The position numbers and the translations under genes are program-made. Below the pieces are notes generated by a model that did not search any database, was not told the DNA's origin, and was given only the letters and a program-made list of their open reading frames with translations. Positions 29,344-59,594 of a DNA stretch of 61,406 bases are shown here, in pieces. The DNA is from a virus. Its lineage: Duplodnaviria > Caudoviricetes. Numbering within the stretch: the stretch's first letter is position 1; the number at the start of each line of letters is the position of its first letter. Location: the IMG/VR virus record IMGVR_UViG_3300032323_001121, positions 1 through 61,406 of that record, one strand, 5' to 3'.

Positions 29344-29579
29344 CTTCCTACTATTTTTGGTTTGGAATTTTTATGTTTGTTGGATACTTAATCGTAACTG
29401 ATAATAGTGCTGCTTATGCTTTCGCATTAGTATTGAAACTCATAAAATTTCAATACGAAAAACAAAAGTGGTGGTTGTTGAATAATCCACGCAACATTAT
29501 AGTTCGTTGGATGATTGATAGAAACTCTATGAAAATGGCAAAAGAACTTATGAAAGAGTTTGAGGAGAAGAATAAATAA
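29340..29579 (+). CDS. Small membrane protein
   Basis: Hydrophobic N-terminus; overlaps the upstream stop codon. Confidence 0.6.
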   Translation: MTSYYFWFGIFMFVGYLIVTDNSAAYAFALVLKLIKFQYEKQKWWLLNNPRNIIVRWMIDRNSMKMAKELMKEFEEKNK

Positions 29580-29665
29580 TAGTGCTTGTCTGTGGTTATT
29601 CAAGCAGAAGAGGGGCAGAAATGTCCCTTTTCTTGTATAAATAATACTAACCACAGTCAAAGCAG

Positions 29666-30412
29666 ATGGAATACTACACTTACGCATATTTGCGTGAAGA
29701 TAAGACACCTTATTATATTGGTAAGGGTAAATGTAATAGGGCATATAGAAGACGCAAGACAGATATTAAACCACCAAAAGACAAATCAAGAATACTTATT
29801 TTAAAACAAAACTTAACCGAAGAAGAAGCATTCAATCACGAAATCTATATGATTGCTGTCTTTGGTAGAAAAGATTTAGGAACAGGTATTCTTCATAATA
29901 AAACTGATGGTGGTGAAGGTGCAAGTGGTAAAATTTTAAGTGAAGAAACTAAAAAAAAATTAAGCATTGTAAATAAAGGTAAAAATCATTCAGAAGAAAC
30001 TAAAAGAAAAATTGGAGAAGCATCAAAAAATAGAAGTGAAGAAACAAGAATAAAATTGAGTGTAGCACTAAAAGGTAAAAATCTTGGAAAAATTCGTTCG
30101 GTTGAGACACGAAAAAAAATTAGTGAGGCTCTTAAAAAAAGAATAATAACTGATAAGATGCGAAAAAAAAGAAGTGAATATTTTAAAGGAGATAAAAATC
30201 CATCAAAAAATCCTGAAATTATTGAAAAAAGAAAGCAAGCAATGACTGGAAAATCACTTCCACCAGAACATTGCAAAAATATAGGTAAATCCAAAAAAGG
30301 TGTTAAGTGGTGGAATAATGGAAAAGAAACTAAATTTTGTATGGAATGTCCTGGAGAAGGGTGGAATATTGGAAGAATAATTACTTGGCAAATGAAGAAA
30401 AAAGTGATATAA
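29666..30412 (+). CDS. GIY-YIG-like homing endonuclease with NUMOD3 repeats
   Basis: YTYAY...PYYIGKG, N.TDGGEG, (H)SEETK.K repeats. Confidence 0.8.
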   Translation: MEYYTYAYLREDKTPYYIGKGKCNRAYRRRKTDIKPPKDKSRILILKQNLTEEEAFNHEIYMIAVFGRKDLGTGILHNKTDGGEGASGKILSEETKKKLSIVNKGKNHSEETKRKIGEASKNRSEETRIKLSVALKGKNLGKIRSVETRKKISEALKKRIITDKMRKKRSEYFKGDKNPSKNPEIIEKRKQAMTGKSLPPEHCKNIGKSKKGVKWWNNGKETKFCMECPGEGWNIGRIITWQMKKKVI

Positions 30413-30442
30413 TTAGTAGTGTCCAATCAATAAGGACTTAAA

Positions 30443-33398
30443 ATGGCAAGAACTAATCGCAATCTTGAAGGAATGCATCGTTACGCACTTCGTTTTCCTC
30501 ATACATTCAACGAAATTAAACAGTTGGATGGAATTTTACACGAAGAAGACTTGGAGGGTCTTCCAGTTTCTGGATTAAATCACATGAAATCCAGGGAGCA
30601 CAACTTACCAACTGCTTGGGACGATAAAGTAATTTCAGCATATTATGAGGCAGACACACAATAAAGTGTCCTTCACCTCTTCCCGTTTTCGGGAGGGGGT
30701 GTTATAATATGGAGAGAATACCAGGAGCACCTATGACTGAAAAGTACTTGACTCATGAGGAAATGTTAGAAATAGCAGCACAACGAGAAGCAGCAAACGA
30801 ACAAGAAGAAGAAACAACCGAAGAAGATGAAACCAAATGAAAAAGAAAGAACAAACGATTGAGTTTCCTCACGCACAGTTTCCTATTCTTATTATACATA
30901 ACGATGGAAAGGAAATGAAGGACACTAAAAAGTGTTATTTTCAAAATATGAATCATGCTGAAAAATACATTGAAAAATGTAAATTCAAGAAAACAGATTA
31001 TCAATCATTCGTTAAACCTGGAACAAATGTGGAAACTATGGTCTCTAGCACTGGGCGAAAAAGCAAGCAAAAAAAATAACGAAGCAGATTGTGTTGCGGT
31101 CCTTCGTACTGTTATTTTTCTAACTTATCTTACTACAAATATTTTTATAATAAGTGGCGTGATAAGGCATTGGAATGACAACCCCAAAATTTACATTCAA
31201 ATTGATGGAGCTAAAATTGGAAAACCTTTATGATGATGGTGCGTTTTATGTGGAACAATCTAATTGGAAAACTTGGAAAAGTTTTGATAAGGACGGGAAC
31301 GCACTTGTTACTTCACTCGCACAAGAGACTTGTGTTGCCGCCACTCGTTACTATCTCAAGGGAAAACAGGAAGGTTGGGGAGAAACCAAAACTTACTCTG
31401 GTAAAGTAGATGGTAAATTATGAGTGATACTGACCCTACTGCTCCTTGGTACGAATTTTTATCCTACTGCCGTTGTTGTGAGAGTCTAGATAGACCAGTA
31501 AGTATTGGTAGTTTTATGAGATATAGAGCATATCTTAGGGAGATAGGAATATTATGAAAATGTTTAATTGGTTTAATAAAATTGTTAAAGAATATGAGAA
31601 ACCTGAAAATTATGAATTTTTAGTTACTGATACTAATGGAGACAAACATAGTCTTGTTGGACTTTGTGCATCACTTGCAAAAGAAGTTTTAAAACTGGAA
31701 AAACGCATCATAAAACTGGAAGAAGAAAATGTAGAAACAACTAACTGCCTCTATGAAATAGAAAATCGTCTTCAATCACAGATTGACAATATTCATCCAG
31801 TGACTTATAATCTCAAAAACACTAATTGGGATCAGTAAATGACGACAGCAAAACAAGCAAAGGATGAGTTTTTATACCCAACTCCTCCCATCAATCCAGA
31901 TGCAGATGTAAGTTTTCTGGATATTGCAACAATCAATAATCTGAATAATTTTACACATCATGTTAGTTATTTGACTAACATGGCAATTGGTGGTAAGATG
32001 AGACCAAATGATGCTTTTGATGAAATTAAAAAACTTTATAAGGCAATGAAACAATCTCATAAGACATTGAGAGGTTCTTGGTTCTGATGGAAGATTCACT
32101 TAAGATTGTGGAACAACCTGATGGAAGTTTCCAAATAGAATGGGACAAGGACGACCAGAAGTGGAACTGGTTAAACGGCAAGACTTCTGCCGAAATTTCT
32201 GCTATAGTAGAACAAGCAATCCAAGATAGACTGAACCAAAATGACGACTAATTACCAAAAAATTTGGAACACGATGAATGAACTTGAGATGGTGACATCC
32301 AAGATTTGTTCTGCCCGTGAGATTCTGGATAGTGCTGTTGATAGACTTCAAGAGCACCAGTATGATAAAGCAGAAACTCTTTTGTATGCTGCGGATGAAT
32401 TTCTTCAGTATTATCTTGAAGACTTTGATAGGAAATTTAAGGATGCCTGGAAAGAAACCGTAGTCAAACTGAAAGAAGAAGACCCTTGTATGCCGCCTTG
32501 GGGACACAGTGATTTGGAATATCTTTCTAAACTACCCCCAGAAGAACCTAAGCAAGATAAAGTAGTAAAGTGGCAACTTCCTGTTGAGGAAGAAAATGAT
32601 GTTATAACAGGAGAAAAAGAATACTTTATCACCTTTCCAGATGACTTGTTGGAAGCAGCAAATCTTAAGCAAGGTGATGATGTAGAATGGGTGGATAGGA
32701 ATGATGGTAGTTTTCTTCTCCGAAAAACTACACAACCAAAAACTTATGATGGAATGGTTGCGGCAGGATATACTATGACTGCTGATGGTTTCTTGATTAA
32801 GGAGAACTGAAATGGCACTATCACAATCGGTTGAAGAAAATTTAAAAGATGCAGAACAATCTTTGAGAGCAGCACTTGCCTTTGCTGCACGACAAGAACG
32901 ACCTGTAGTATGTTCGGTAATTTCTGACTTGATTAGTCGTATTGAAAGTGTAATGAATACTGATAAACTTCTGGATAAACTGGAGAGTCGTAAATTTGGT
33001 GATACTGGATTCTTTGGAACTGTGTTTGGGGAATAACTATGATTGAACCAAATGAGTTTGGTAAATCCCTACAAGAATGGTGGGATTCTGATGAATGTAA
33101 ACAAATTGAAAAAGCAAGTGAAGAAGCAAAGCAACGTGCAGTAGGAAAGTATTTTATGCTTTCCGAATCTGATAAACTTGATATGGTTCAGGCAATCTGC
33201 CTTATTATGTGTAAGGCAGAGAAAGAAGGAACCAGTCACAGAGGACTGCAAGATGCTCTAGGAATCTATCCTACTGGGTTCTGGGTAGACCATCTTATGG
33301 AAGTTCATAATGCTCTGTGGTCTTATTATCACGATAAAAAACAAAAGCAAGAATTAGAAAAAGATATAGAAAACTTACAAGACTTTATGGAAACCTAA
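30443..33398 (+). other. Cluster of small hypothetical ORFs (30443, 30837, 31175, 31554, 31839, 32241, 32812, 33039)
   Basis: Tightly packed + strand ORFs; 32241 ends in an AbrB/MazE-like motif (FITFPDDLLEAANLKQGDDVEW). Confidence 0.6.
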
Positions 33399-33649
33399 AG
33401 ATATTCTTAAGGAAATACCATATTCATAGATAGTGTGTTAGGATTGCAACACATATATGAAAACCCCTATGGAATTAAGCACCGAAGAATGGAACGAACT
33501 GGTAGCATTAAAAGAAGCAATCAATTATAATCCAGCATCAGTTCATCCGCAGAAGATGGAACTATTCACAGAACTTCTTGTGAGGTCTTGGAGTGAAAAA
33601 ACAGAAGTTATGACCTTTGATAAATAATCAAAGGTCTTTTTGTATCTAA

Positions 33650-34339
33650 ATGATTTCGGAAGCAAGTAAGAGAGAAAAGATTGCTAATGCTGTTCTTGGT
33701 GCAACATTTGCATTAAGTGCGGCACAATCTCCTAAAGACTTTGTAAGAACAGGAAATATTGAAAGTCCTGGTGCTGCTCTGATGCAAACTTGGGGAAGAA
33801 AAAGAGGAGAAGCAGAAAGAAATCTAGATAGTGGTAGAGTTTCACATCCAGCAAGAAATAAAAAAATGAAGAAAACACTTAAAGAGTTTTTGGAAGAAGC
33901 ATACCTTTACGAGATGCGTAAAGAAGATAAAGTCAAGGGGAAGCAAAAAACTCCTATGTATTTGGCAAGAACTTCGGGAAGTGTGAAAAAAACTCCAGAA
34001 GGTAAGTGGGAATTGGAGAAAATGAAACTTAAGAGACCTAATCCAGATGCGGTGATAGGAAGAATGCGTCAAGGAATGACACCTAAACCTGGAGATGCTC
34101 CACACCCAGGATGGGGAAGTGAGAGAGAACAACTTCGCAGACATGAGCACGGAGGTGGTGGAAGTGGTGCTAAAGACAATAAACCAGGTGAACTTCGTGG
34201 TAAGAAGAAAGTTCCAGGGGCAAAGGTAGAACGCAATTGGAATACCGATGGTCCAAGTCCACAAATGAAAGTGGGTTGGGCAAAATCAGCTAGAGCAAAT
34301 AAAGGGAAGGATATTTTCAGTAGAAAAACAACACTATAG
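33650..34339 (+). CDS. Basic protein, putative internal head protein
   Basis: Internal KTLKEFLEEA motif; TAAATA upstream. Confidence 0.5.
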   Translation: MISEASKREKIANAVLGATFALSAAQSPKDFVRTGNIESPGAALMQTWGRKRGEAERNLDSGRVSHPARNKKMKKTLKEFLEEAYLYEMRKEDKVKGKQKTPMYLARTSGSVKKTPEGKWELEKMKLKRPNPDAVIGRMRQGMTPKPGDAPHPGWGSEREQLRRHEHGGGGSGAKDNKPGELRGKKKVPGAKVERNWNTDGPSPQMKVGWAKSARANKGKDIFSRKTTL

Positions 34340-34343
34340 TAGA

Positions 34344-34988
34344 ATGAAAACTTTTCAAAAGTTTATTGCTGAAGCATATTTGATTGAGGGAAGAAGATTT
34401 GTTCCCAAAGACGAAGCACAAGCAAAACTTGATAAAATGTCTCCAGAAGAAAGAGAGAAAAGATCTCTTAGAAATTCAGGAGCAAATCGAGGTGGATGGG
34501 GAACAAAATTAAAAGATTCACTTAAAAAACAAAAGAAAAGAAGATCTGAAACATTAAATCCACTAACAAAAAATGAATTAGAAAGTCAAGCAAAAAAAGA
34601 TTTGTCAAGGAAAAACCCAAGTGAACTAGCTTCTATTGCGTTTGACCGTGAAGAAGATGCAAGAAAAAAGAAAAAAGAAGCAGCAAGAAGATTGACGAAA
34701 AAAACTGGAATCAAACACGTTCAAGATCATATTCAACCACTTCAACAAGATAAGAGGAACCCTAAATACCGAAAACGATTCGAAAGAGCAAGTCCTGGTG
34801 ATGTTGCATCAAACCTTCAAGTAACGTCAGAACCAAAAAATTTAATAAAGGGATCTAAACCTCCTAAAAAAGGACAACGTGGTTACGGTACAACAAGATC
34901 TGGTGCAATTAGACAAAGACTAGATAAAGCACAAAAGTTTTCGGACAAATTAGATAGACTTATATCTAGTGTAAGGTCGCAAGGATAA
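34344..34988 (+). CDS. Basic protein with capsid-targeting-like N-terminus and HNH-like motif
   Basis: MKTFQKFIAEA; HVQDHIQPL...NLQV...KN. Confidence 0.55.
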   Translation: MKTFQKFIAEAYLIEGRRFVPKDEAQAKLDKMSPEEREKRSLRNSGANRGGWGTKLKDSLKKQKKRRSETLNPLTKNELESQAKKDLSRKNPSELASIAFDREEDARKKKKEAARRLTKKTGIKHVQDHIQPLQQDKRNPKYRKRFERASPGDVASNLQVTSEPKNLIKGSKPPKKGQRGYGTTRSGAIRQRLDKAQKFSDKLDRLISSVRSQG

Positions 34989-35005
34989 ATAACTAAAAAA
35001 GATAT

Positions 35006-35836
35006 ATGAAAACCTTTCAAGAGTTTATTACCGAAGCAAAGAAGTGCTGGCCTGGTTATAAGAAAAAAGGCACCAAAAAACTATTTGGAAAGACTTATAA
35101 TAATTGTGTAAAAGAAGAAGTTGAATTGGAAGAAAGTTCAACTGGTGAAAGAAGTAGAGGACGAGCTACTTTAGGTCGTGCTGGAAATAAGATGGACCGA
35201 GGAGAAAGATCTGTTGCTGCAATTGCAAAGAAAGCAGGATTGAAAGGAACTGGTAAGTATTCCACTAAAGATTTGAGAACGAGAGCAAGAGATTATACAA
35301 CTTATGATAGTGATGATGATATGGATGATGCTGGAAGCACAAAACAAGACCATTTCATTCGCACATATTCATCAGCAAGAAAGGCAGCAAAGGCTGAAAG
35401 ACTTATTAGTAAGGTAAAACCAGCAGGAAGAAATGCATCTGGTATGACTAAACTCAAAACTGCACCTTCAAGTGAAAGTGTAAGAAGAGTGAAAGATTTG
35501 AGAAAGCAGATGGTCAAATCAGGTGCTTCTAAAACTGGAAAAGTTCATACTGTAGATATTATGCATCGTGATAGTGATGTTGGTAAAGGTGATAGAAACC
35601 AACGAATGGAAAGGGGTAGAAACTTTATTCAAGCAGTTAAAGATACTCCAAAACAATTGAAGAAAGCAGGAGCAAAGAAAGGTGATACTGTAATTGGAAA
35701 ACCAACAGCAGTTATGCCTGGTGAAGATAAGAAAACTGGTGAAGAAAAGAGAGGAAAACTTTATAAAAAGATTTTTGGTAAGAAATCTACCAAAGCAAGT
35801 CCCAAAACAGGATTAATGGTAGGAAAAGTAGATTAA
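35006..35836 (+). CDS. Basic putative internal head protein
   Basis: MKTFQEFITEA N-terminus, Lys/Arg-rich. Confidence 0.6.
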   Translation: MKTFQEFITEAKKCWPGYKKKGTKKLFGKTYNNCVKEEVELEESSTGERSRGRATLGRAGNKMDRGERSVAAIAKKAGLKGTGKYSTKDLRTRARDYTTYDSDDDMDDAGSTKQDHFIRTYSSARKAAKAERLISKVKPAGRNASGMTKLKTAPSSESVRRVKDLRKQMVKSGASKTGKVHTVDIMHRDSDVGKGDRNQRMERGRNFIQAVKDTPKQLKKAGAKKGDTVIGKPTAVMPGEDKKTGEEKRGKLYKKIFGKKSTKASPKTGLMVGKVD

Positions 35837-36135
35837 TGAAAACATTTAGAGAGTTTTTATATGAGGCATCTACAACACAGAGATTGAAAATTGCAACAGC
35901 AAAGTTAATTGCAAAAAATCCAAATAATTCTGTATATAAAACTCTATTGAATAGAATTAGGGAAAGGCAAGCACCACTATATCCAGATTATCCAGGAAGA
36001 GAATCTGCCAGAAAAGATAAGACCCTAATTCCATCTGGAAGAACATCAAGTTTTCCAGAACTTGAAGGAATATCTACAAGAACTAAAAATCCCAAGAAGT
36101 TAAGAAAACAAAAAGCATTAGGTGAGTTATCATAA
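35836..36135 (+). CDS. Basic putative internal head protein
   Basis: MKTFREFLYEA N-terminus. Confidence 0.55.
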   Translation: MKTFREFLYEASTTQRLKIATAKLIAKNPNNSVYKTLLNRIRERQAPLYPDYPGRESARKDKTLIPSGRTSSFPELEGISTRTKNPKKLRKQKALGELS

Positions 36136-36167
36136 ATATATAAATAAATACAAAACCATTTGTAGCA

Positions 36168-36755
36168 ATGAACTCACAAGAACTTAACAATCTTCACGAA
36201 GCTTACTTGGATGTCTACACAGATATTGATGAAGAGAGAGCAGAAGGTGTAAGACCTTATAAAGCAGGACCAACTCAAGCAGAAGTTAGAGCAGACGCAA
36301 AAAAATCAGAAAAATCAAAACAAGACAAAGACAAAGACAAAGCAGGTTATGGTCCTGAAGACAAGTTTAAGAGTGATTGGAAGCTAAGAGCAGTACCCTC
36401 TTCGACAAGTAAGAGAAAAACAGGAGAAACAGAAACTGTTTCTCAAAGAATGAATAGAGAAGCTCCATATAAAACAAGACCATTCTCTCCATTATTCACA
36501 AAACAGGGAAGTCGCACTGCTTCTGCTGTAACTAGAGCAACTGAAGGACCAGGTGAACCACAATCAGTTACAATGCCTAGAATGAAGTCAAAAGCATCAA
36601 AGGAAATCGTTAGAAAAAATCTAAACAATTCTTATGACCTCTATGATGTAATCCTTTCATATCTTCTTGATGAAGGATATGCTGATACTTTTGAAAGTGC
36701 AGAAGCAATTATGGTGAATATGAGTGAAGAGTGGAGAGACAGCATCATCGGTTGA
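36168..36755 (+). CDS. Late protein with YDLYDxILSxLLDEGYA...MSEEW motif
   Basis: Motif shared with 39395..40138; TATAAATA upstream. Confidence 0.6.
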   Translation: MNSQELNNLHEAYLDVYTDIDEERAEGVRPYKAGPTQAEVRADAKKSEKSKQDKDKDKAGYGPEDKFKSDWKLRAVPSSTSKRKTGETETVSQRMNREAPYKTRPFSPLFTKQGSRTASAVTRATEGPGEPQSVTMPRMKSKASKEIVRKNLNNSYDLYDVILSYLLDEGYADTFESAEAIMVNMSEEWRDSIIG

Positions 36756-36832
36756 TACCACTTCCCAAACCGGCACAAGACCCCTCCCAGGGGTCTTTTT
36801 TTATGCTATGATACTGGAAACCAAAGAACACT

Positions 36833-37243
36833 ATGGAACTCACAATCGTTGCTTACAAACTTGAAAATGGGATGTGGGCATTTGACCACCCCCATAACAA
36901 TACAGTTCAAGAACTACTCCTAAATGGAACCGAAGAAGCAATTGACGAGCACTTTTACTTTGAAAGTGGACGATATCCAGTTGAAAAGGACCAAATGGAA
37001 ATCATTTTGAATACAGAAGAACCTGATGATTACGATACTCTGCTTGTAAAAGAAGTTGGTGATGATGATGGAACGACTTATACTGATACAACACTTTGTG
37101 CTCCTGTGTGGCTTTGTAACTGGAACCAAGGATACTTTGGATTTGTGCCCGAAGAACTTTATGTAAAAGTGCGTCCCATCAATAAAGGTTTGGAAGGATT
37201 TGTAAATAGGACTGGGATGCGAGGTCTTTTGAACCGTCCCTGA
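36833..37243 (+). CDS. Hypothetical protein (DUF6717-like)
   Basis: W.FD...E.L..G....ID, VWLC...YFG..PE.LYV. Confidence 0.55.
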   Translation: MELTIVAYKLENGMWAFDHPHNNTVQELLLNGTEEAIDEHFYFESGRYPVEKDQMEIILNTEEPDDYDTLLVKEVGDDDGTTYTDTTLCAPVWLCNWNQGYFGFVPEELYVKVRPINKGLEGFVNRTGMRGLLNRP

Positions 37244-37277
37244 CCCCTTGCTGGACCCCCAGAGGACATAAAATTTA

Positions 37278-37655
37278 TTATTTGGATATAGAATAACCTA
37301 AAGAAGTTAGATAATCTATTGCCCAATTTTCTTTATCTACATATTCAGTAAAAATTACTCTATTTTTACTATTTTCTGATTTAGATGTCCATTCTAAATT
37401 TTCAATATTGTAATTGCTTCTATTTCTGTCTTTGTGATTTACTTCAGGTAATAAATTTGGATTTGCGATATAATATTCTGCGACCAATCTATGAATTGCT
37501 TTCATTCTCCATTTTCCACAATCATCTTTGATTGTTACTACAGGATAACCAAATGAATTTAATGAGGGTTTTAGACTTTTTCCCTTTCCTAATGAAGAAT
37601 ATACATCTCCATTCATATAAATTTTGTAATTTGAAAAACCTTCTATAATTTTCAT
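37278..37655 (-). CDS. HNH homing endonuclease (NUMOD4/HNH type)
   Basis: IHRLVAEYYI.NP..LPEVNHKDRNRSN..IENLEW....N. Confidence 0.85.
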   Translation of the reverse strand: MKIIEGFSNYKIYMNGDVYSSLGKGKSLKPSLNSFGYPVVTIKDDCGKWRMKAIHRLVAEYYIANPNLLPEVNHKDRNRSNYNIENLEWTSKSENSKNRVIFTEYVDKENWAIDYLTSLGYSISK

Positions 37656-37780
37656 ATAACTATGATAATGTTAATCATAGTTATTTATACGAGTGTGCCA
37701 CTCATAGAACTGACACAAGGTCCTTCCGCAGCACCCCAAAACGTGTTATAATTACTAGGTAATCAAATGAATGGGGCACG

Positions 37781-38011
37781 ATGGAAGTTCTTGAGATTAG
37801 CACCTCTGGTGCGATTGCTAAACTTTCTTTTAATGACGAAGACAACACTGTTGGTGTTGCTTACACTTACAAACCTGATAAGTTTTATGTCTTCAAGTGT
37901 GATAGTATTGAAGGTTTCAAAGGCAAACTTCGCAACACCTTTAATGCTGGTGAAAGTGTTGGTAAGATGATTTCTCAAATGAAGAAAGATGGTGTCCTTG
38001 TGACTGTCTAA
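37781..38011 (+). CDS. Small KTSC-like protein
   Basis: S.AI..LSF....TV.V.Y......Y.F...ESVGK pattern. Confidence 0.45.
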   Translation: MEVLEISTSGAIAKLSFNDEDNTVGVAYTYKPDKFYVFKCDSIEGFKGKLRNTFNAGESVGKMISQMKKDGVLVTV

Positions 38012-38026
38012 ATCTTTATTTTTTCT

Positions 38027-38100
38027 GCTCGTTTAGCAATCTGTTTGAATGCAGCGTTCTCATAAAGCGCCGAAGGTGGGTTAGATTCCCACAACGAGCA
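38027..38100 (+). tRNA. tRNA-Met/Ile2(CAT)
   Basis: Acceptor GCTCGTT/AACGAGC; loop CTCATAA. Confidence 0.8.
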
Positions 38101-38225
38101 CTCGCCGTGGTTCAAAACTTTAGATGAGAGCAGTGGGGCACTTATCAAAAAGGTTTGATTTAGATTCACAACCACACGGCACACTTGACTATTGTGATTT
38201 TTTGAGTTATGATAGTCTTATACAA

Positions 38226-38507
38226 GCGAGTATGGTGGAATCGGTAGACACACCAGACTTATGAAAATTGAGCCTCATTTAGGAAACTTTATGAGTGTAA
38301 TTCCTCAAATTCGGTGAAACCTGTAAAATGGCAATACCGAGCCAAGCATCGCAAGATGAAGGTGTAGAGACTAGACGGGGAACATCTAAACCAAAAGGTA
38401 TGATGAAGGTATAGTCCAGACCACAAACCGAAAGGGTAGTGAAAACTATAGTGGTAAGAAAATCTGTTGGGCGTATGCCCGTGGGAGTTCAAGTCTCCCT
38501 ACTCGCA
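38226..38507 (+). tRNA. trnL: tRNA-Leu(TAA) interrupted by a group I intron (exons 38226-38260, 38459-38507)
   Basis: Joined exons give CCAGA-CTTAAAA-TCTG anticodon arm, a long variable arm and acceptor GCGAGTA/TACTCGC. Confidence 0.9.
38261..38458 (+). ncRNA. Group I intron, trnL(UAA)-type, no ORF
   Basis: AATTGAGCC..GGAAAC..TCAAATTC.G.GAAACC, GGCAATAC.GAGCCAA, GTAGAGACT, ATAGTCC core; follows U34 and ends in G. Confidence 0.88.
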
Positions 38508-38528
38508 TTATATAATAAAAAAAGTTAT

Positions 38529-39368
38529 ATGAAACAGTTCCCATTAAAGACGGCCTTAAGATATCCTGGAGGCAAGAGCAAAGCACTCAAAACACTTGCT
38601 CCTTGGTTTCCAAGTGATTTCAAAGAGTTTCGTGAACCCTTCTTGGGTGGTGGAAGTATTTCTTTAATGGTTTCGCAGAACTACCCAAAAGTTCCTATCT
38701 GGGTAAACGACAAGTATTATTACTTGTATAACTTTTGGGTTCAACTTCGTGATAATGGACAAGTTCTCAAAGATAAATTAAGAGCAATCAAAGAAAAAGT
38801 TCTTAATGACGACAACGCACACCAAGAACTCTTTAATGATTACTCTCATACGATTGGTAATCTTGAACCATTAGAACAAGCAGTTGCGTTCTTTGTGATG
38901 AATAAGTGTTCTTATTCTGGTCTTACAGAGAACTCAACATTTTCAGTTCAAGCATCACGTTCTAACTTCTCGTTAGTTGGTATTGATAAACTTCCACGAT
39001 ATTCTTATATCATCAAAGACTGGAAGATTACTAATATTGATTATGAGGAAGTAATGAACGCAGAGGGTGATGGTGTGTTTGTATTTCTTGACCCACCTTA
39101 TGATATTAAGGATTTCCTTTATGGAACTGGTAGAAAACTTCACTCATCATTCTCTCACGAAAGATTTGCTGATGATGTGGATAAATGCCCTCATCGTTTT
39201 ATGATTACTTACAATCTTAATGATTGGATATTAAGTCGTTATAAAGAGTATAATATAGATGAATGGAAGTTGAGGTATTCTATGGTTCATCGTGGTGAGA
39301 AAGGAACACAAGATAATGTGAAAACCGAATTGCTGATTACGAATTATAAACTTGATACAGTTTTATAA
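38529..39368 (+). CDS. dam: DNA adenine methyltransferase (Dam/D12 class)
   Basis: LRYPGGKS, EPFLGGGS, FLDPPY, FMITYN, ELLITNY. Confidence 0.9.
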   Translation: MKQFPLKTALRYPGGKSKALKTLAPWFPSDFKEFREPFLGGGSISLMVSQNYPKVPIWVNDKYYYLYNFWVQLRDNGQVLKDKLRAIKEKVLNDDNAHQELFNDYSHTIGNLEPLEQAVAFFVMNKCSYSGLTENSTFSVQASRSNFSLVGIDKLPRYSYIIKDWKITNIDYEEVMNAEGDGVFVFLDPPYDIKDFLYGTGRKLHSSFSHERFADDVDKCPHRFMITYNLNDWILSRYKEYNIDEWKLRYSMVHRGEKGTQDNVKTELLITNYKLDTVL

Positions 39369-39394
39369 ATACTTTGATAGAACTGTAAAAGCAA

Positions 39395-40138: not shown

Positions 40139-40209
40139 TACCACTTCCCAAACTGACACAAGACCCCTCCAAGGGGTCTTTTTTATGATATAGTGTTTAT
40201 ACATAACAT

Positions 40210-40238
40210 TTGACAAAACTCTAAAAAACTGGTATATA
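40210..40238 (+). promoter_or_regulatory. Sigma70-type promoter of the tRNA-array leader
   Basis: TTGACA-17 nt-TATATA. Confidence 0.6.
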
Positions 40239-40259
40239 TAATATACACAAGAACAAACA

Positions 40260-40358
40260 ATGACTAATCTCCATTCACAACCAAAGAGTGATTATCCGAT
40301 GAACCGCTGGTTTATTGGAGAGACCCTCTTGGTTGCGAATATGATAAGTCAAAGTTAA
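40260..40358 (+). CDS. Putative attenuator leader peptide MTNLHSQPKSDYPMNRWFIGETLLVANMISQS
   Basis: 32 codons, 19 different amino acids; overlaps alternative RNA helices. Confidence 0.65.
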   Translation: MTNLHSQPKSDYPMNRWFIGETLLVANMISQS

Positions 40359-40381
40359 AAGACAAATCATAAAAAGCAACG

Positions 40382-40417
40382 AAGAGGGAGAATCCAAAAG
40401 ATTCCCCCTCTTTTTTT
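40382..40417 (+). terminator. Intrinsic terminator (attenuator 3:4 helix)
   Basis: GAGGGAGAATC-CAAAA-GATTCCCCCTC followed by T7. Confidence 0.8.
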
Positions 40418-40487
40418 ATGGTCTTGTGCCACTTGTGCTACTGGCACACTCAAAGAGCACGGACCTCAAAACGTGGTATTCTTAAAG

Positions 40488-40526: not shown

Positions 40527-40541
40527 TTACCATATTTTATT

Positions 40542-40735: not shown

Positions 40736-40739
40736 CCTT

Positions 40740-53044: not shown

Positions 53045-53101
53045 GGACACCTGATGAACTGGCACAAGGACTTCCCACAGGGGCCCCAGATGCCTTATAA
53101 T
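53045..53101 (+). promoter_or_regulatory. Representative copy of a repeated promoter cassette, GGACACTTGA..GAACTGGCACA-N~30-TATAAT (about 18 copies)
   Basis: Similar copies near 36754, 37695, 40138, 40426, 45370, 46909, 51491, 54594, 56350, 57185, 57678, 59596, 60212, 60640, 61139. Confidence 0.8.
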
Positions 53102-53802
53102 AGTCTCATAAGCAACCAAACCGATGATTGACCTTTCTCAACTGACAGAAGACCAAATCGACGAACTTGAACTTCAAATCCAAAAGCATAAGGAACAACA
53201 GAATGTGAAGAATGCTTTGGAAAATCTAAAAGGTTATAGAGTAACTTTTTATGTGAGGTTTGACCCTGAAAAGCATAAGGATAATGATATGCTTACAGAT
53301 GACGGAGAACTTGACCCTAACATTTTTGCTGATTATCTGTGTGATAATGTTGCCTCAAAACTGATTATGGATTTTGACTTTGGTGATTATGAAGATGTGA
53401 GTTATCCTATTGTGTTCTTAGCAACAAAACAAGAAATTGAAGAGGAATTTTGAGGAACTGAAATGAATGACTACCACCTGATAATGAGGATGAAGAATGA
53501 GAATTGAAATCACTTATACCCCACATCCAACCAAAGGATACACGGCAACAATCTGGGATGGACCAGATGGAATAGATGAAGATAGTTTTGTTTGCTGTTC
53601 TCTTGGAGAATGTTTTGAACAGATTGTAATGTGGAGAACCCTCAACGCACAACATTATTATGGAGAAACTGAAGTAGAAAACGATAATAAATAAGAATGT
53701 CTGTTGGAACGGCAATTCTCTACAGATAAAGATTGGGTGCTTTCGGGCACCTTTTCTATTATAAACTTATATAAATAGTAATGCCGTTTCAACAAGATAG
53801 AA

Positions 53803-54594
53803 ATGAACTATCTAAAGCATTATTGTAATCTTATCAGGAAAGCAGAGAACAGAATTTCTCCTGAAGGATATACAGAAAAGCATCATACATTTCCAGTAAG
53901 TATATTTGGAAAAAATAAAAGAATTGTAGTGCTTACAGCAAGAGAGCATTATGTTGCTCACGCATTATTGGAGAAAGCATTTATAAAGAGATATGGATTA
54001 CATCATTATAGAACTCAAAAAATGAACTTCGCACATAGTGCTATGAAATGTAAAAATCAATACACTAATTCATATCTGTATGAAAATGCGAGAAAGAGAA
54101 GAACTGAAATAATGAAAGAGCAAAAAATGAATTGCGGAGAAAAAAATCCTATGTATGGAAGAAAACATTCTCCAGAAACTATTGAAAAAATGATAAAGGT
54201 CAAAAAAGAAACTGATATAGATATTATTTTTAGTAGAACAAGTAATGCTGGGAAAAAAGCATATGAAATGAAAGTAGGAGTTCATAACCGGACAAAGGAG
54301 CAAATAAAAAAAGATAGTAGTAAAGGAGGTCAAAAAAATATTGAAACTGGACAAATTATAGAATTGGGAAAAGAGATGGGACAAAAACATTATGAAAATG
54401 GAACTGGTATTTTTTCACTAACAGAGGAACAAAAATTTGAAAGGTCAAGTAAAGGAGGAAAAATATCAGGCAAAATTGTTTCTTCTCAAAGGTGGATATG
54501 TCTTGAAACCGGACATATTTCTACACCGGGAGGACTTGCTAGATTTCAAAACGCAAGAGGTATAGACACTTCTAAACGAAAAAGAATAGCATAG
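53803..54594 (+). CDS. HNH (MobE-like) homing endonuclease
   Basis: YTEKHHTFP.SIFG......LTAREHYVAHALL; NPMYGRKHS. Confidence 0.8.
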   Translation: MNYLKHYCNLIRKAENRISPEGYTEKHHTFPVSIFGKNKRIVVLTAREHYVAHALLEKAFIKRYGLHHYRTQKMNFAHSAMKCKNQYTNSYLYENARKRRTEIMKEQKMNCGEKNPMYGRKHSPETIEKMIKVKKETDIDIIFSRTSNAGKKAYEMKVGVHNRTKEQIKKDSSKGGQKNIETGQIIELGKEMGQKHYENGTGIFSLTEEQKFERSSKGGKISGKIVSSQRWICLETGHISTPGGLARFQNARGIDTSKRKRIA

Positions 54595-54661
54595 GACACT
54601 TCCCAAACAGGCACAAGGGCACTTTACAAATGCCCCCTTTTGATGTAGGATACTCTTATAG

Positions 54662-55427
54662 ATGAAAACTCAAATGCCTTTCAACAACGAAATTGAAAAA
54701 ACTAAACAAGAGATTGAAGTTTTGACCGCAAAATTAGAACTTCTCAAAGAAATTGAGAAGCACAAATCACCAGTAGAAGAGGCATATAAAAGAGTTTATG
54801 GATTTTATCCTGAAACTTATGAAGATGAAGATAATTGGAGTTCTTTTCAAGATGGTTATAATGCCGCACAGAAAGATTATAAGGTAGGAGAGTATCAACC
54901 AACTCCACAAGAACCAGCAAAAGATAAAGTGCCTCTTTACACACGATTTACAGGTGAGAGTGCTTATGGTCAAATATATTTTGATGATGCCCTTAGAGTT
55001 GTAAGGAGTTTCCTTTTGGACGAGGCAGTTATAGAAAACGAAGACCACGAATACATTACATTCACTCTACAAAAATCTCTACTGGAAGTTACTAATGACT
55101 GAAACTATTCAACAACTCAAAGAAGATATTGCTATTCTTCAAGAGAAACTACAAAAACTTGAAGAACTTCAACGAACAAAATCACCAGTAGAAGAGGCAT
55201 ATAAAAGAGTTTATGGATTTTATCCTGATACTGGTATTTGTAATGGGATGTCTTATGTCTGGTGGGATGTTTTCTGTAATGGTTATAATGCCTCAAAGGA
55301 AGATTATAAGGTAGAAGAACCCAAAAAAGAACAAAAATGGGGGGATATTGTTCGTGAGAGTGTAAAATGGTGTAAGGAGCATCCTGATGAGAGTGTGGAA
55401 GATTATCTAAGTGGTCCGTATAAATAA
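54662..55427 (+). other. Two paralogous ORFs sharing KSPVEEAYKRVYGFYP (54662-55102; 55095-55427)
   Basis: Identical DNA segment caaatcaccagtagaagaggcatataaaagagtttatggattttatcctga. Confidence 0.7.
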
Positions 55428-55527
55428 TAGTGCTCTAATGAGTTCGCATCCATAAGAGTGGAAAAGGTGTCTTCGGGCACCTTTTCTTGTATAAATAGTA
55501 TTGCGAACTCAATTTAGAAGCAGAACT

Positions 55528-56349
55528 ATGACTTCACAAAGTCCAAGAATATACTTATATAAAATTACCTTTGAAGAAGTTCCATATTACTATTATGGAA
55601 TTCATAAGGAAAAGGTATTTGGTGAAGAGTATTGGGGTTCTCCAAAAACAAACAAGTGGTGCTGGGAACTTTATACTCCAAAGAAACAAATACTTCAACT
55701 CTTTGACTTTACAGATGAAGGTTGGTTAGAAGCAAAAAAAGTTGAGACAAAAGTAATAAAACCATTTCTCAATATGGATAAATGGTGTCTAAATGAAAAT
55801 TGTGGTGGAATTGTTTCGTTAGAAGTTTTGAGACAAAGTGGTAATAAATGTTATGAACTTGGATTGGGAGTTCATTCACTAACCAAAGAGCAAAGAAGTG
55901 AAAATGGTAAAAGAACTGGTAAAATTTATGGAAAAATTGGAGGTAGAAGAGCATATGAACTTGGAGTTGGTGCTCACGGAAGAACAAGAAAAAAAATGAG
56001 TGAAGATGGTAAAATAGGTGGTAAAATTACATATGAAAATAAAATAGGAATACACGTAAGAACCAAAGAAGAAATGATTGAAAATGGAAGGAAATGTGGA
56101 TATAGGACTTATGAACTTGGTATTGGTATTCACGGACAAAGTAAAGAGCAAATGACTGAAAATGGTAGAAAAGGTGGTAAGATTGGAGGCAAATTAGGTT
56201 CTAAAGAAGATAAAAGTAAGGCAGCAAAAAAAGCAAACTCACAACGATGGATATGCCTTGAAACTGGATATGTCTCAAATGCTGGTGGTCTTTCAAATTA
56301 TCAAAGAGTAAGAGGTATAGACACTTCTAAAAGAAAACGAATGGAGTAA
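55528..56349 (+). CDS. GIY-YIG-like homing endonuclease with Gly/Lys repeats
   Basis: N-terminus paralogous to 42219, C-terminus paralogous to 53803. Confidence 0.72.
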   Translation: MTSQSPRIYLYKITFEEVPYYYYGIHKEKVFGEEYWGSPKTNKWCWELYTPKKQILQLFDFTDEGWLEAKKVETKVIKPFLNMDKWCLNENCGGIVSLEVLRQSGNKCYELGLGVHSLTKEQRSENGKRTGKIYGKIGGRRAYELGVGAHGRTRKKMSEDGKIGGKITYENKIGIHVRTKEEMIENGRKCGYRTYELGIGIHGQSKEQMTENGRKGGKIGGKLGSKEDKSKAAKKANSQRWICLETGYVSNAGGLSNYQRVRGIDTSKRKRME

Positions 56350-56417
56350 GGACACTTGAAGAACCGGCACAAGGGCACTTGAAAACAGGTGTCCTTTGTG
56401 GTATGATACTCTTATAG

Positions 56418-58721
56418 ATGAAATCCAAGATGACTGAAACTATTCAAACTCTCAAAGAGGATATTGCTATTCTTCAAGAGAAACTACGGAAACTTGAAGA
56501 ACAAGACCCTGAAATGCTACTATTGCGTCAAGGAAAGGTTGATGTTGTTGATTATGATGGAAAGAAGTATTTTAGGATTGAATATACGGATAGTTTTGCT
56601 GGTGTGTATAGTTGGTATGTGCGGAAAGTTGGAGAAGATGCTATCCGTCCAGTTAGGGATGTAAATGTTTATGCTCCTCTTGAAGAACTTTACCAGAAAG
56701 AAGTAGTGAAACAAAAAGACGATTATCCTTATAAAAAATACACACCAGAAGAAACCGCAGAGGGTCTTCGTAATGCTATGAGGAAAGCAAAGAAAGATGG
56801 AGTGTTTGATGAACCCACAAAACCTATGAATGAGGTTCTGGATAGGTTGGAGAATAAGTATAAGGATGCGGAAGAGAATGCTGCTTCTTATATGACTGAT
56901 GAAGTTGTGAATAGAATGTTGAAGAGATGGGAGACCGACCCACCTTCATTTCTTCGTTTTGAATTATCTAAAACTCTTGAAGCACTCATTACTCGTTGGT
57001 GGGATGATGTATTATATGGTGGTATTCATCAAGATTGGGCGATTGATGACTTGATAGACCAGATACAACTTTGGTTGCCTCGTGAGCAATCACACGAAGG
57101 AACTCAAAGTGCTTCTGTAATTGACCTTGTAGATGGATATAATGACGCACTCACCAAAATCAAATCAAAGTTGAGGAATAAGAAGGACACTTGATGAACT
57201 GGCACAAGGACACTCCACAGATGCCCTTTGAGGTGCTATAATACACTCATACGAAACAAACCGATGAAAAACCATCAGTTCAAACCACAAATCTGTTTAT
57301 GGAAACGAAAAGAACTAACCCTCAAATGTTGGATTTTTCGTTTTCTCACTCCTGTTGCCGGACTACTTGATGCTCTCATCACAATTTGTTCTTTCACTAT
57401 TCTAGTAAGCAACTTTGAGATGGAGGTGGTTACACTTCACACATACGAATACTTCAAAGCACTTAAAAAACAACAAACACAAAGGAACTCCAATGACGCT
57501 TTCTAACGAAGATTTGATTTTTACCTTTATGAGTGTATATCCTGTCTCTGGAAAGTATGCTTGGATGGGTGAGAGATTGGGAATGGCAGCAGTGCTGAAA
57601 CTTATTGCAAGTGAATTGATTGAAGAAGTCTCCCCCGTAGAGGCACTTCTGGAAATTGCCGATAAACTTGAATCTCTGGACACTTGAAGAACCGGCACAG
57701 ACACCCCACCACAGGGGCATCTGATGCCTTATAATAGTCTCATACACACAAAGACATTATGACTGAACGCAACCTAAAACGGCAATTGTCTTATTACACC
57801 TATACCGATATGGAGGATGGTGCTGATATTGGAAGTATTGACTATTGTGCTTTGATTGAAATTATTGACGATTTGTATGATAAAATTGAGACACTTGAAA
57901 GAGACAACCAGTTGTTAAAGTCTTATGCGTGGGAAGTATGACTAACGAAATTAAAACTTGCCGTAGTTGTAAGCACTACAAAGATTATGATGGTATCTTT
58001 GATTGGATAAGTTCTCGTATCTTTGGATTTCCTACTCTACAAAGGTGTTATCATCCAGACCGATGGAAGAGTGTTGATTATGTGGATGGAACTACCGACC
58101 CTTATGGTTTTTGTTCTGTTGAAAGACGCACTGGTTCTTGTAGAAAGGAAGGAAAAAACTGGGAGGAAAGGAAATGACTAACGAACAACAAGAACTTCTA
58201 AACTCTTTCCAAGAAGAAGTTGAGAAGTGCTTCGTAATCGCACAAAAACTTGATGCTCTCAATCCTGAACTTGCCCGTGCTTTTACTGGAACTCCAAGTT
58301 TGAGAATTACACGACAACTTTATGCTCTTGGTATTCTAAATGACTGATGCCCAAATATGCGAAATGGTTAATATGCACCGATACCTTATGATGTGTGAGA
58401 TTAAACACGCATTTCATAAATTTTGTGCTGAAAATGGGAACCAAGATTACAGTGCTGCCAATCGTTCAGAAACATTTAATGATAAAGAATGGATTAAATT
58501 TGCCCAATGGTTCAAGGTGATACGAGATGACTGAAGAATACACAGACGAACAAATCCAAGAGTGGAACAAAGAGGGCTTTGGAAATCTTCCAGATGGTTT
58601 CTTTCTATCTCAAAGTGAAATTGACGAGTTGAGAAAGTCCAAAAGAGAACTCACGGATTATGCTAAACAAAAATTGAAAGAACTTATAGAAAAACAGGAT
58701 AGAGAAAATACTGATAAATAA
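56418..58721 (+). other. Small hypothetical ORF cluster (56418, 57263, 57759, 57938, 58527 and others)
   Basis: Co-oriented ORFs downstream of promoter cassettes. Confidence 0.6.
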
Positions 58722-58829
58722 AAATGTCTATGTGAACCGCAATTCTCTACAGACAAAGATTAGGTGCTTTCGGGCACCTTTTCTATTGTAAACTCTTATA
58801 AATAGTATTGCGGTTAACATAGAATAGAA

Positions 58830-59594
58830 ATGGTAAATCCTAACAGGTTTTATACTTACGCATATTTGCGGGAAGATAAGACACCTTATTACATAGGTAA
58901 AGGTAAAAAATTTAGAGCATATAGTATATGGAGAAAAGGACTAAAACCACCTAAAGATAAATCCAGAATAATCTTCCTTAAACAAAATCTAACTGAAGAA
59001 GAAGCATTCAAGCACGAAATTTATATGATTTCTATATTTGGTAGAAAAGATTTAGGAACTGGTATTCTCCATAATAGAACTATTGGTGGTGAAGGTGCTT
59101 GTGGATATAATCATACTGAAGAAACAAAAATTTTAATAAGCAATTTACATAAAGGAAAAAAATTAACAGAAGGGCACAAGAAAAAGGTTGGAGATTCTTT
59201 ACGAGGAAAGAAGAAAAAACCTTTATCTGATGAAACTAAGAAAAAATTAAGTGAGGCAAATAAAGGTAAAAATAACCCAAATTATGGTAAATCATTTTCT
59301 GAAGAACACCGAAGAAAAATGAGTGAAGCACATAAAGGTAAAACTCGTTCAGAAGAACATAGAAGAAAAAATAGTGAAGCAAAAAAAGGAGAAAATCATC
59401 CTTTTTATGGTAAAAAAGGAAAAAATCATCCTGCCTATGGTAGGTCACATTCAAAAGAAGCAAAAACAAAATTAAGTATAATAAATAAAGGACTAAAATG
59501 GTGGAATGATGGTAATGGAAACAATAAAAGGTCAATAGAATGTCCTGGAGAAGGTTGGGTTCCTGGAATGACGAAAAGAGTAAGAGTATCATAA
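58830..59594 (+). CDS. GIY-YIG-like homing endonuclease with NUMOD3 repeats
   Basis: N-terminus nearly identical to 29666; SEEHRRK repeats. Confidence 0.8.
   Translation: MVNPNRFYTYAYLREDKTPYYIGKGKKFRAYSIWRKGLKPPKDKSRIIFLKQNLTEEEAFKHEIYMISIFGRKDLGTGILHNRTIGGEGACGYNHTEETKILISNLHKGKKLTEGHKKKVGDSLRGKKKKPLSDETKKKLSEANKGKNNPNYGKSFSEEHRRKMSEAHKGKTRSEEHRRKNSEAKKGENHPFYGKKGKNHPAYGRSHSKEAKTKLSIINKGLKWWNDGNGNNKRSIECPGEGWVPGMTKRVRVS

Follow-up and report, generated by a model that had tools for sequence, protein, structure and literature searches.

Homing endonucleases are selfish nucleases, and a phage must keep them quiet until late infection. Among other mobile elements, IS10 limits its own enzyme through RNA-OUT/RNA-IN, in which the loop of a stem-loop RNA pairs with the 5′ end and ribosome site of the mRNA; like the type I antitoxin RNAs, whose toxins are small peptides, this RNA is cis-antisense, encoded on the opposite strand and overlapping its target. 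In T4-like phages, a cis lock, a hairpin with a late promoter inside it, has been described for the endonuclease genes I-TevI, I-TevII, I-TevIII, segB and Aeh1 mobE (Edgell, Gibb & Belfort 2010, PMC2988022), and the same source places T4 e and soc under this lock. Promoter-early stem-loops (PeSLs) are a second kind of element described for T4-type phages (Arbiol et al. 2010, PMC2839356; Comeau et al. 2014, PMC4122927); the term ‘late promoter’ is absent from the main text of both papers, and ‘cyanophage’ from that of PMC4122927. A third is CfrI of S-PM2, described in a review as an antisense RNA of ~225 nt on the opposite strand that spans an endonuclease gene and psbA (Millard et al. 2010, via PMC2984593). 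Here, we describe a family of control units ahead of nuclease genes in T4-like cyanophages, starting from five copies in one window, the whole 61,406-nt stretch of DNA that was analysed (IMG/VR record IMGVR_UViG_3300032323_001121).

Five cassettes in one window

The five units are each ~110 bases long, lie ahead of one nuclease gene each (Table 1) and share the same order of parts at all loci: a NATAAATA box, a small hairpin with the 5′ arm, an intrinsic terminator, TATAAATA, a complementary leader and the ATG. This common architecture had been claimed in the initial annotation and is borne out, and all sequences quoted there are present at the positions claimed. The terminator segment consists of a GC-rich hairpin and a T-run at every locus; the terminator motif GGTGYYTTCGGGCACC is enriched in the window (3 found vs 0.04 expected) and the motif GGCAGAAATGYC by itself is not (3 found vs 1.63 expected). 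No cassette is covered by an Rfam family: gathering thresholds give none in the whole window, and E ≤ 1 gives none in 53600-58900.

Table 1 Positions in the window of the cassette parts (L1-L5), the nuclease genes and the PeSL-like elements that follow three of them
Locus	Feature	Position	Strand	Details
L1	Outer box AATAAATA	29571-29578	+	TAAATA 29573-29578; overlaps stop codon of ORF 29340-29579
L1	Local hairpin presenting 5′ arm	29583-29606	+	Arm 29583-29598
L1	Intrinsic-terminator-like hairpin and T-run	29606-29633	+	Core GGGGCAGAAATGTCCC
L1	Inner late promoter TATAAATA (predicted)	29636-29643	+	
L1	Leader / 3′ arm	29648-29664	+	Ends 1 nt before ATG at 29666
L1	Nuclease gene	29666-30412	+	248 aa; NUMOD3; PHROG homing endonuclease; GIY-YIG-like below cut-off
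L2	Outer box TATAAATA	42112-42119	+	5 nt past tRNA-Arg (42032-42106)
L2	Local hairpin presenting 5′ arm	42126-42151	+	Arm 42129-42141
L2	Terminator-like hairpin	42154-42177	+	GGAGGAGGCAGAAATGCCTCTTTCC
L2	Inner late promoter TATAAATA (predicted)	42181-42188	+	
L2	Leader / 3′ arm	42193-42213	+	Perfect core 42193-42204
L2	Nuclease gene	42219-42923	+	234 aa; within tRNA array
L3	Outer box AATAAATA	53686-53693	+	Overlaps stop of ORF 53497-53694
L3	Local hairpin presenting 5′ arm	53700-53726	+	Arm 53702-53714
L3	Terminator (predicted)	53730-53757	+	Core GGTGCTTTCGGGCACC 53736-53751, then TTTTCT
L3	Inner late promoter TATAAATA (predicted)	53770-53777	+	
L3	Leader / 3′ arm	53782-53797	+	
L3	Nuclease gene	53803-54594	+	263 aa; PHROG 655 homing endonuclease, NUMOD3
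L3	PeSL-like element (predicted)	from 54595		Similar to that after L4
L4	Outer box TATAAATA	55419-55426	+	Overlaps stop of ORF 55095-55427
L4	Local hairpin presenting 5′ arm	55433-55458	+	Arm 55435-55448
L4	Terminator (predicted)	55460-55487	+	Core GGTGTCTTCGGGCACC 55466-55481
L4	Inner late promoter TATAAATA (predicted)	55490-55497	+	
L4	Leader / 3′ arm	55502-55527	+	Helix extends to base preceding ATG
L4	Nuclease-like gene	55528-56349	+	273 aa; N-terminus like 42219, C-terminus like 53803
L4	PeSL-like stem-loop and sigma70-like promoter (predicted)	56350-56417	+	Directly after nuclease stop; promoter-like site TTGAAA-17-TATGAT 56379-56407
L5	Outer box GATAAATA	58713-58720	+	Overlaps stop of ORF 58527-58721
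L5	Local hairpin (TGTCT/AGACA) presenting 5′ arm	58725-58755	+	Arm 58727-58743; read by eye, not in MFE fold; stem columns covary in relatives
L5	Terminator (predicted)	58760-58784	+	Core 58763-58778
L5	Inner late promoter TATAAATA (predicted)	58797-58804	+	
L5	Leader / 3′ arm	58807-58823	+	
L5	Nuclease gene	58830-59594	+	254 aa; 6 NUMOD3 stretches; 52% identical to 29666
L5	PeSL-like element (predicted)	59596-59653		Similar to that after L4; TTTACG-17-TATAAT 59625-59653; terminator-like hairpin 59617-59639

When the RNA from the box to the ATG is folded, the minimum free energy (MFE) structure is a long-range helix enclosing the terminator hairpin at all five loci, with z-scores of −5.45 to −6.60 and 0/200 shuffles as stable at each. 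Cognate duplexes between the 5′ segment and the leader reach −20.1 to −24.0 kcal/mol, an energy matched by none of 1,000 shuffles at any locus, and each tops its own row and column in the 5 × 5 matrix, in which the strongest non-cognate duplex has −18.5 kcal/mol (L4 arm with L2 leader). The earlier claim that the pairs differ by locus yet stay complementary is supported by this matrix and by the shuffles. The helix ends about 1-14 nt before the AUG and covers the leader with its purine-rich stretch, the AUG itself lying outside except at L4. In the MFE fold of the short RNA, the local 5′ hairpin is present at four of the five loci (L5 lacks it). Perfect inverted repeats of 9, 10, 11 and 12 nt at cassette spacing are not rare in the window (19/11/3/2 observed vs 15.4/4.1/1.0/0.7 shuffled), and the significance therefore rests on the extended imperfect helices and their fixed position. 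With filters off, a covariance model finds exactly these five cassettes on the + strand, all ahead of nuclease genes; apart from them, it matches the window only in two faint echoes on the reverse strand (E 0.026 and 0.27).

Not all five cassette genes can be assigned to a nuclease class with certainty: NUMOD3 is detected in three, PHROG homing-endonuclease or HNH families match four, and the GIY-YIG matches fall below Pfam cut-offs. ORF 55528, for which there is no family match, resembles 42219 (69% identity across 97 aa) and the C-terminal part of 53803 (43%). Nine nuclease-like genes are present in the window and only five of them have the cassette; simple T4-type hairpins with TATAAATA in the loop occur at the HNH genes 26813/26848 (z-score −6.5) and 43425 (−4.6).

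After three of the five nuclease genes, a stem-loop overlaps the −35 of a sigma70-like promoter whose spacer measures 17 nt, and the window holds five copies of a conserved box of this element (0.00 expected). With its predicted sigma70-like promoter and stem-loop terminator, repeated in a hyperplastic region, the 3′ element fits the description of a PeSL; the label is by description and claims no sequence relation to coliphage PeSLs. PeSL-like elements also occur away from nucleases, at 53045, 57185 and 60212.

Covariation and mobility in relatives

The five cassettes belong to a large family. An architecture-only detector gives 170 cassettes on 105 freshwater T4-like cyanophage contigs, besides the cultured carriers S-SRM01 and B3, in which the cassette is seen by direct inspection. 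A matching blastn hit suggests that B23 is a third cultured carrier of the cassette or a close copy, and the model detects no cassette in S-PM2.

Across 89 aligned cassettes the long-range helix is ~94% paired (halves 93.9% and 94.4%). Both-side changes in the helix and terminator amount to 369 cells, compared with 26-62 in slid controls and a shuffle mean of 115, and 0/500 shuffles attain the observed number. The base pairs of the long helix are Watson-Crick in 1,178 cases, G-U in 103 and A-C in 19. Because covariation is heavy and G-U is commoner than A-C, the arms pair as RNA on the + strand; judged by these changes, the long-range pairing is real and selected. The cognate duplex is at −18 kcal/mol or below in 86 of 87 pattern-found cassettes, and a recombinant with mismatched arms (L117) has −6.9 kcal/mol. 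The local hairpin, 79.5% paired, covaries as well, with AU 31/GC 28 at one pair and CG 39/UA 31 at another; it and the long-range helix draw on one 5′ strand, for which they compete. A complete intrinsic terminator lies between the arms, which are separated by 49-63 nt, and in 39 cassettes picked without regard to terminator or inner-promoter sequence the terminators vary widely in sequence while keeping their structure, as many unrelated GC-rich hairpins with T-runs. The inner box is TATAAATA in 38 of these 39, in 169 of the 170 detector cassettes and at all five window loci, where it lies between the two arms such that predicted late transcripts lack the 5′ arm; this predicted promoter is under strong selection.

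DNA upstream of TAAATA is unrelated from copy to copy, and an identical leader arm stands in eight copies ahead of ORFs with five different N-termini. Genes with a cassette in front include an ORF above the Pfam HNH cut-off (L090), gp066 of S-SRM01, which is annotated as HNH, and GIY-YIG-like/NUMOD3 genes, in agreement with the earlier claim that nucleases of different families share the cassette. In RNA-library contigs of relatives, which are assembled from metatranscriptomes and cannot show transcript ends, the junction between one cassette and a different nuclease ORF falls precisely on the ATG (53802>55528 and 55527>58830). These arrangements indicate that everything between TAAATA and the stop codon of the nuclease gene travels together, as one module with co-evolving arms, among intergenic sites and nuclease families. 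The cassette also recombines within its conserved core.

A proposed cis lock and its alternatives

We think it probable, though by no means settled, that each cassette serves one homing-endonuclease gene as a mobile, self-contained control unit of an ‘insulate and lock’ type. The intrinsic terminator would stop transcription arriving from an upstream early or middle gene. In read-through RNA the 5′ arm, as covariation shows, pairs with the short, Shine-Dalgarno-poor leader, and this pairing would block initiation in cis, although the helix halts 6-14 nt before the AUG in four loci (1 nt at L1). By analogy with T4, late mRNAs from the TATAAATA between the arms would begin within the 3′ arm or immediately ahead of it and, having no 5′ arm, would be translatable, and at three of the five loci the PeSL-like terminator/early promoter 3′ of the nuclease gene would restart transcription of the next gene. 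The pairing alone is fully accounted for by this known cis mechanism on read-through transcripts. However, a cis lock alone requires neither an invariant outer TAAATA, nor its 5-nt spacing, nor a covarying local hairpin. Every terminated RNA also bears the 5′ arm, which precedes the terminator, and the simple hairpins of the same window show that a cis lock can be built without this arrangement.

A second, distinctly less likely reading gives these parts a role in trans, either as an addition to the lock or as the main one. Late polymerase would start ~6 nt past the outer NATAAATA and end at the terminator, yielding a candidate small RNA of ~50-60 nt with two hairpins, or the upstream mRNA would release such a piece from its 3′ end by cleavage. 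The loop arm of this RNA would pair in trans with the late nuclease mRNA at its 5′ end and limit nuclease dose. The near-invariance of the outer TAAATA (87/87 full-architecture cassettes, from 88 unique pattern matches, and 36/37 extra model matches), at a fixed 5 nt from the hairpin, points this way, as do the covarying local hairpin and the arm positioned upstream of the terminator. The box doubles as the stop codon of the upstream ORF in 73 of 110 cases, an alternative reason for keeping TAA, but it is retained where no stop is needed: at L2 it follows tRNA-Arg, 15 of 125 cassettes lack an upstream ORF of at least 40 codons, and 34 of the 110 ORFs end 3-14 nt before the box.

As a promoter, the outer box gives a mixed picture. 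All five window boxes fit NATAAATA, a reported cyanomyovirus late promoter (review PMC2984593), and seven boxes of the same window that precede non-nuclease gene starts by 22-50 nt likewise read [C/A/G]ATAAATA. Among relatives the NATAAATA type is found in 64/87, 25/39 and 118/170 cassettes (full-architecture, unselected and detector sets), but NCTAAATA (CTAAATA, ~25%) takes its place in 23/87, 10/39 and 42/170, and the full TATAAATA that nearly always forms the inner box is seen in only 14/87; the outer box may therefore be a weak promoter or none. With transcript ends assumed, the net gain from cofolding the predicted small RNA and late mRNA is −10.0 to −15.0 kcal/mol at all five loci. Both RNAs would be late and come from adjacent promoters, which does not guarantee that the repressor outnumbers its target. 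Cross-pairing at −18 kcal/mol or below is rarer among co-resident cassettes (2.3% of 220 ordered pairs) than between contigs (7.4% of 3,000 random pairs); this trend could instead reflect assembly breaks at long repeats or selection against repeat recombination, and two of the five strong within-contig cross-pairs are one cassette counted twice. The ‘type I antitoxin-like’ label of the initial annotation fails on defining features: the RNA would be on the same strand, upstream and non-overlapping, and the target is a nuclease of 234-273 aa, not a small toxic peptide. If true, with the outer box firing, this reading would mean a portable, re-addressable small RNA-target pair that rides with homing endonucleases and sets their dose, and whose RNA could also repress the same cassette when a co-infecting genome carries it: a new class of phage small RNA and the first trans-acting one among T4-like phages.

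It is very improbable that the inverted repeats work as DNA, either as a cruciform or hairpin for recombination or insertion or as an operator bound by the nuclease, with RNA pairing incidental. The cassette is mobile and recombines in its conserved core, L117 has mismatched arms, and I-TevI is reported to repress itself via an operator overlapping its own late promoter (PMC2988022); however, the excess of G-U over A-C in the long helix is a strand asymmetry unexpected of a DNA duplex or cruciform, and arms that vary freely ahead of one nuclease family but are identical ahead of different families are unlike a protein-specific operator. Functionless chance complementarity in AT-rich intergenic DNA, with which the common perfect repeats of 9-12 nt would agree, is refuted by the 0/1,000 shuffles, the compensatory changes over 89 copies and the exactly five model matches before nuclease genes.

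With the cassette read as an insulate-and-lock unit, freshwater T4-like cyanophages would pack terminator, lock and late promoter into one movable element, swappable across nuclease families and insertion sites while its arms drift and compensate. The helix is among the clearest natural examples of covarying long-range RNA pairing in phage leaders, and the arm pairs provide a ready set of variants with mutually weak cross-reaction. Given the cultured carriers S-SRM01 and B3, and presumably B23, the question is open to direct test.

Comparison with known systems

If the trans reading holds, the cassette would resemble IS10 RNA-OUT/RNA-IN as a self-limiting mobile element with loop-to-leader pairing; unlike IS10 and type I RNAs, the candidate RNA would lie in tandem with its target, on one strand. 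With CfrI, as described in the review, it would have in common that a T4-like cyanophage links a regulatory RNA with a homing endonuclease gene, but the candidate here would be ~55 nt, same-strand, upstream and bounded by promoter and terminator. PeSLs, as described in PMC2839356 and PMC4122927, are likewise small conserved intergenic promoter and terminator modules of hyperplastic regions that insulate inserts and serve as recombination linkers, whereas the 5′ cassette has late rather than early promoters, a long-range helix with covarying arms and a linkage to nucleases.

The T4-type lock, as described in PMC2988022, resembles the cassette in that a helix covers the translation start region of transcripts from upstream promoters, the late promoter lies between the arms and the genes under control encode homing endonucleases in T4-like phages. 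In contrast to that lock, the cassette arms lie 49-63 nt apart and enclose a complete intrinsic terminator, the 5′ arm sits in the loop of its own covarying hairpin with a second late-promoter-like box at fixed spacing, the leaders have no clear Shine-Dalgarno sequence, and the whole is a conserved mobile module with interchangeable arms in 170 copies. The cassette extends a known control trick of phage T4.

Architecture and pairing of the cassettes

The five cassettes L1–L5 lie upstream of ORFs 29666, 42219, 53803, 55528 and 58830, and the sequences that the initial annotation had quoted are present at all five places. Its claim of a uniform architecture also holds, as the order of elements is identical at 5/5 loci: an outer NATAAATA box; 5 nt on, a small hairpin with the 5' arm in its loop and 5' strand; a GC-rich hairpin and then a T-run; TATAAATA; and, from 4 nt after TATAAATA, a leader with complementarity to the 5' arm, ahead of an ATG 22–30 nt after TATAAATA. 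The GGCAGAAATGYC motif by itself is not enriched. In a genome-wide scan, perfect inverted repeats of cassette size and spacing were common by chance in the window; hence, the length of a repeat proves nothing by itself, and the scan was dropped as a cassette detector because it does not discriminate. The extended cognate duplexes range from -20.1 to -24.0 kcal/mol, and 0/1000 shuffles reach the cognate value at any locus. Each cognate duplex tops its row and column in a 5x5 matrix, which bears out the locus-specific complementarity that had been proposed. From box to ATG, the RNA is predicted at 5/5 loci to fold into a long-range helix around the terminator hairpin (z -5.45 to -6.60). With filters off, a covariance model that was built on relatives finds exactly L1–L5 in the window, the other matches there being just two weak reverse-strand echoes.

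RNAalifold, run on 89 aligned cassettes, predicts the long-range helix unaided, and with a structure string supplied by us this helix is ~94% paired in the same alignment (halves 93.9% and 94.4%). At single helix pairs, the number of standard pair types reaches five or six (one of them has GC 28, AU 26, GU 25, UA 5, CG 2 and UG 1). Over helix and terminator together, 369 cells are changed on both sides, compared with 26–62 in controls with slid partner columns and an average of 115 across shuffles, of which 0/500 reach the observed count. G-U pairs outnumber A-C pairs in the long helix by 103 to 19, an asymmetry that is expected for plus-strand RNA and not for DNA. At the level of comparative sequence analysis, we show that the arms pair as RNA. 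Among the matches listed, the cognate duplex is at or below -18 kcal/mol in 86/87 cassettes; the one exception (-6.9 kcal/mol), in a stretch from a relative (L117:302-408), is an evident natural recombinant, with its 5' half from one cassette type and its leader from a different one. The terminator keeps its structure while its sequence is wholly replaced between copies.

Family size and modularity

A pattern scan of IMG/VR for the terminator core plus TATAAATA matched at least 119 stretches. Among the matches listed there are at least 88 unique instances, with the full architecture in 87 (the exception is the stretch L052), and 80 of these 87 are followed by an ORF of at least 150 codons; the ORFs downstream of pattern-found cassettes have several nuclease-like N-terminal types. 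The covariance model gave 138 hits in 100 loci. For cultured phages, the model finds six cassettes in S-SRM01, three weaker ones in B3 and none in S-PM2, and blastn with one cassette matches S-SRM01 only. An architecture-only detector, which requires two TAAATA boxes separated by 50–92 nt, an arm duplex of -15 kcal/mol or lower and an intervening hairpin, gives 170 instances on 105 contigs. Each element of the cassette is conserved, and the inner box is TATAAATA in 38/39 and 169/170 copies of two sets that were both picked regardless of the inner promoter. A variant cassette in phage B3, located before gp390 (L128:1375-1503), has the outer box ACTAAATA, the inner box AATAAATA instead of TATAAATA and a long, weak terminator, with arms that still match. 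No Rfam family matches the cassettes, literature searches found no description of them, and a term search of the main text of the S-SRM01 genome paper (PMC8557907) gave 0 occurrences each of "promoter", "terminator" and "hairpin".

Similarity between cassette copies starts at the outer TAAATA, and the sequence to its left is unrelated. An identical leader arm is found in 8 copies in front of ORFs with 5 different N-termini, and in the RNA-library contigs of relatives one cassette is fused to another nuclease ORF precisely at the ATG. The L2 cassette is inserted directly 3' of tRNA-Arg, which recalls T4 segB within the T4 tRNA region. On the other side of the nuclease genes, a conserved stem-loop overlaps the -35 of a sigma70-like promoter (17-nt spacer) 3' of L3, L4 and L5, and is absent behind the L1 and L2 genes. 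This element fits the terminator/early-promoter cassettes known as PeSLs (promoter-early stem-loops), as described in parts of PMC2839356 and PMC4122927, and its strict motif is matched by only 27/76 relatives.

Nuclease genes and their surroundings

The 61.4-kb contig (GC 36.8%) comes from a T4-like cyanomyovirus; among cultured phages, its DNA or proteins are closest to those of the Synechococcus phages S-SRM01, S-PM2, B3/B23 and S-SKS1. It holds nine nuclease-like genes in 61 kb. Two HNH genes have a classic T4-type lock, a 13–14 bp hairpin with TATAAATA as its loop (z -6.5 and -4.6, in the order of the table), and one further gene has a weaker hairpin of this type (z -3.5). ORF 55528, the L4 nuclease, gave no match in a sequence search against the PDB. 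The genes on either side of it jointly resemble a single S-PM2 gene, p046, and S-PM2 has no nuclease at that position; a p046-like gene may have been split or rebuilt upon insertion of the L4 nuclease. The tRNA array ends in a phage-borne tmRNA gene of cyanobacterial type, which is also matched by the permuted tmRNA model and is not called by ARAGORN. A group I intron match lies between tRNA-Met and a DNA methyltransferase ORF, with an HNH gene just upstream on the opposite strand.

Features of the window other than the five cassettes
Feature	Position	Strand	Match	Remark
HNH gene	26813/26848-27376		PHROG HNH, E 3e-19	lock region 26785-26860
HNH gene	43425-43754		PHROG HNH, E 7e-23	lock region 43375-43440
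Gene with weaker T4-type lock	39395
SegE-like GIY-YIG/NUMOD3 gene	44309-44907	-		plain ATAAATA box, without cassette
HNH gene	37278-37655	-		plain ATAAATA box, without cassette
PeSL-like stem-loop + sigma70-like promoter	53045-53101, 57185-57242, 60212-60236			between small genes, away from nucleases
ORF upstream of L4 nuclease	55095-55427		p046 residues 2-111
ORF downstream of L4 nuclease	56418-57194		p046 residues 4-28 + 118-266
tRNA genes (25)	28829-45080			majority in dense array 40541-42106
tmRNA gene	45103-45355		Rfam RF01851, 83 bits
tRNA-Met	38027-38101
Group I intron match	38251-38440		RF00028, 63.5 bits
DNA methyltransferase ORF	38439-39368

Proposed control of the nuclease genes

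Parts of PMC2988022 describe a lock in T-even phages, reported for I-TevI, I-TevII, I-TevIII, segB and Aeh1 mobE, in which a hairpin conceals the ribosome site on early and middle transcripts, and open transcripts arise from a late promoter that the hairpin contains. The five cassettes differ from this lock by an added terminator inside the loop, and we therefore read them as most likely being 'insulate and lock' units. The terminator would halt transcription arriving from upstream, any read-through RNA would be locked in cis by pairing of its 5' arm with the nuclease leader, and the inner late promoter would provide the translatable mRNA.

The initial annotation, whose observations stand and whose interpretation is supported in part, had proposed that the outer box and terminator yield a small RNA acting in trans against the nuclease leader, a reading that we consider possible but less likely than not. 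The outer TAAATA is invariant in 87/87 full-architecture cassettes among the matches listed and present in 36/37 extra model hits, keeps a fixed distance to the hairpin and is retained where a stop codon is unnecessary. All five outer boxes in the window fit the cyanomyovirus late promoter NATAAATA reported in part of PMC2984593, and they resemble seven boxes that precede the starts of non-nuclease genes in the window by 22–50 nt. Because the 5' arm is upstream of the terminator, every terminated RNA would carry it; covariation is also seen in the local arm-presenting hairpin, despite its competition with the long helix, and the predicted gain from pairing in trans is 10–15 kcal/mol. However, the outer box is NCTAAATA in about a quarter of cassettes and the full TATAAATA in only 14/87 among the matches listed, and repressor and target would be produced simultaneously. 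The analogy to type I antitoxins breaks down on both the strand arrangement and the nature of the target. Strong cross-pairs make up 2.3% among co-resident cassettes versus 7.4% among random between-contig pairs, a trend not counted as support because contigs that break at repeats during assembly, related contigs and one duplicate detection confound it. Five metatranscriptome runs from 3 studies contain only 5–12% of sampled words, all as related-phage contigs, so that stretches without coverage carry no weight; one RNA-library contig (X3), from a single study, ends at the L3 terminator T-run (53758) and was counted as no evidence. The small-RNA question is directly testable.

The upstream ORF stops inside TAAATAA at 73/110 cassettes and 3–14 nt before it at 34/110, and an upstream ORF of at least 40 codons is missing at 15/125. 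A role of the outer TAAATAA as a mere portable stop codon was rejected as the sole reason for the box, because the box persists 3' of a tRNA and at cassettes whose upstream ORF ends earlier or is absent.

For the 'insulate and lock' reading, the two HNH genes with the simple T-even lock provide an internal comparator to L1–L5 in the same window. In the cassette, a known T4-type control takes a new form that is elaborate and widespread.
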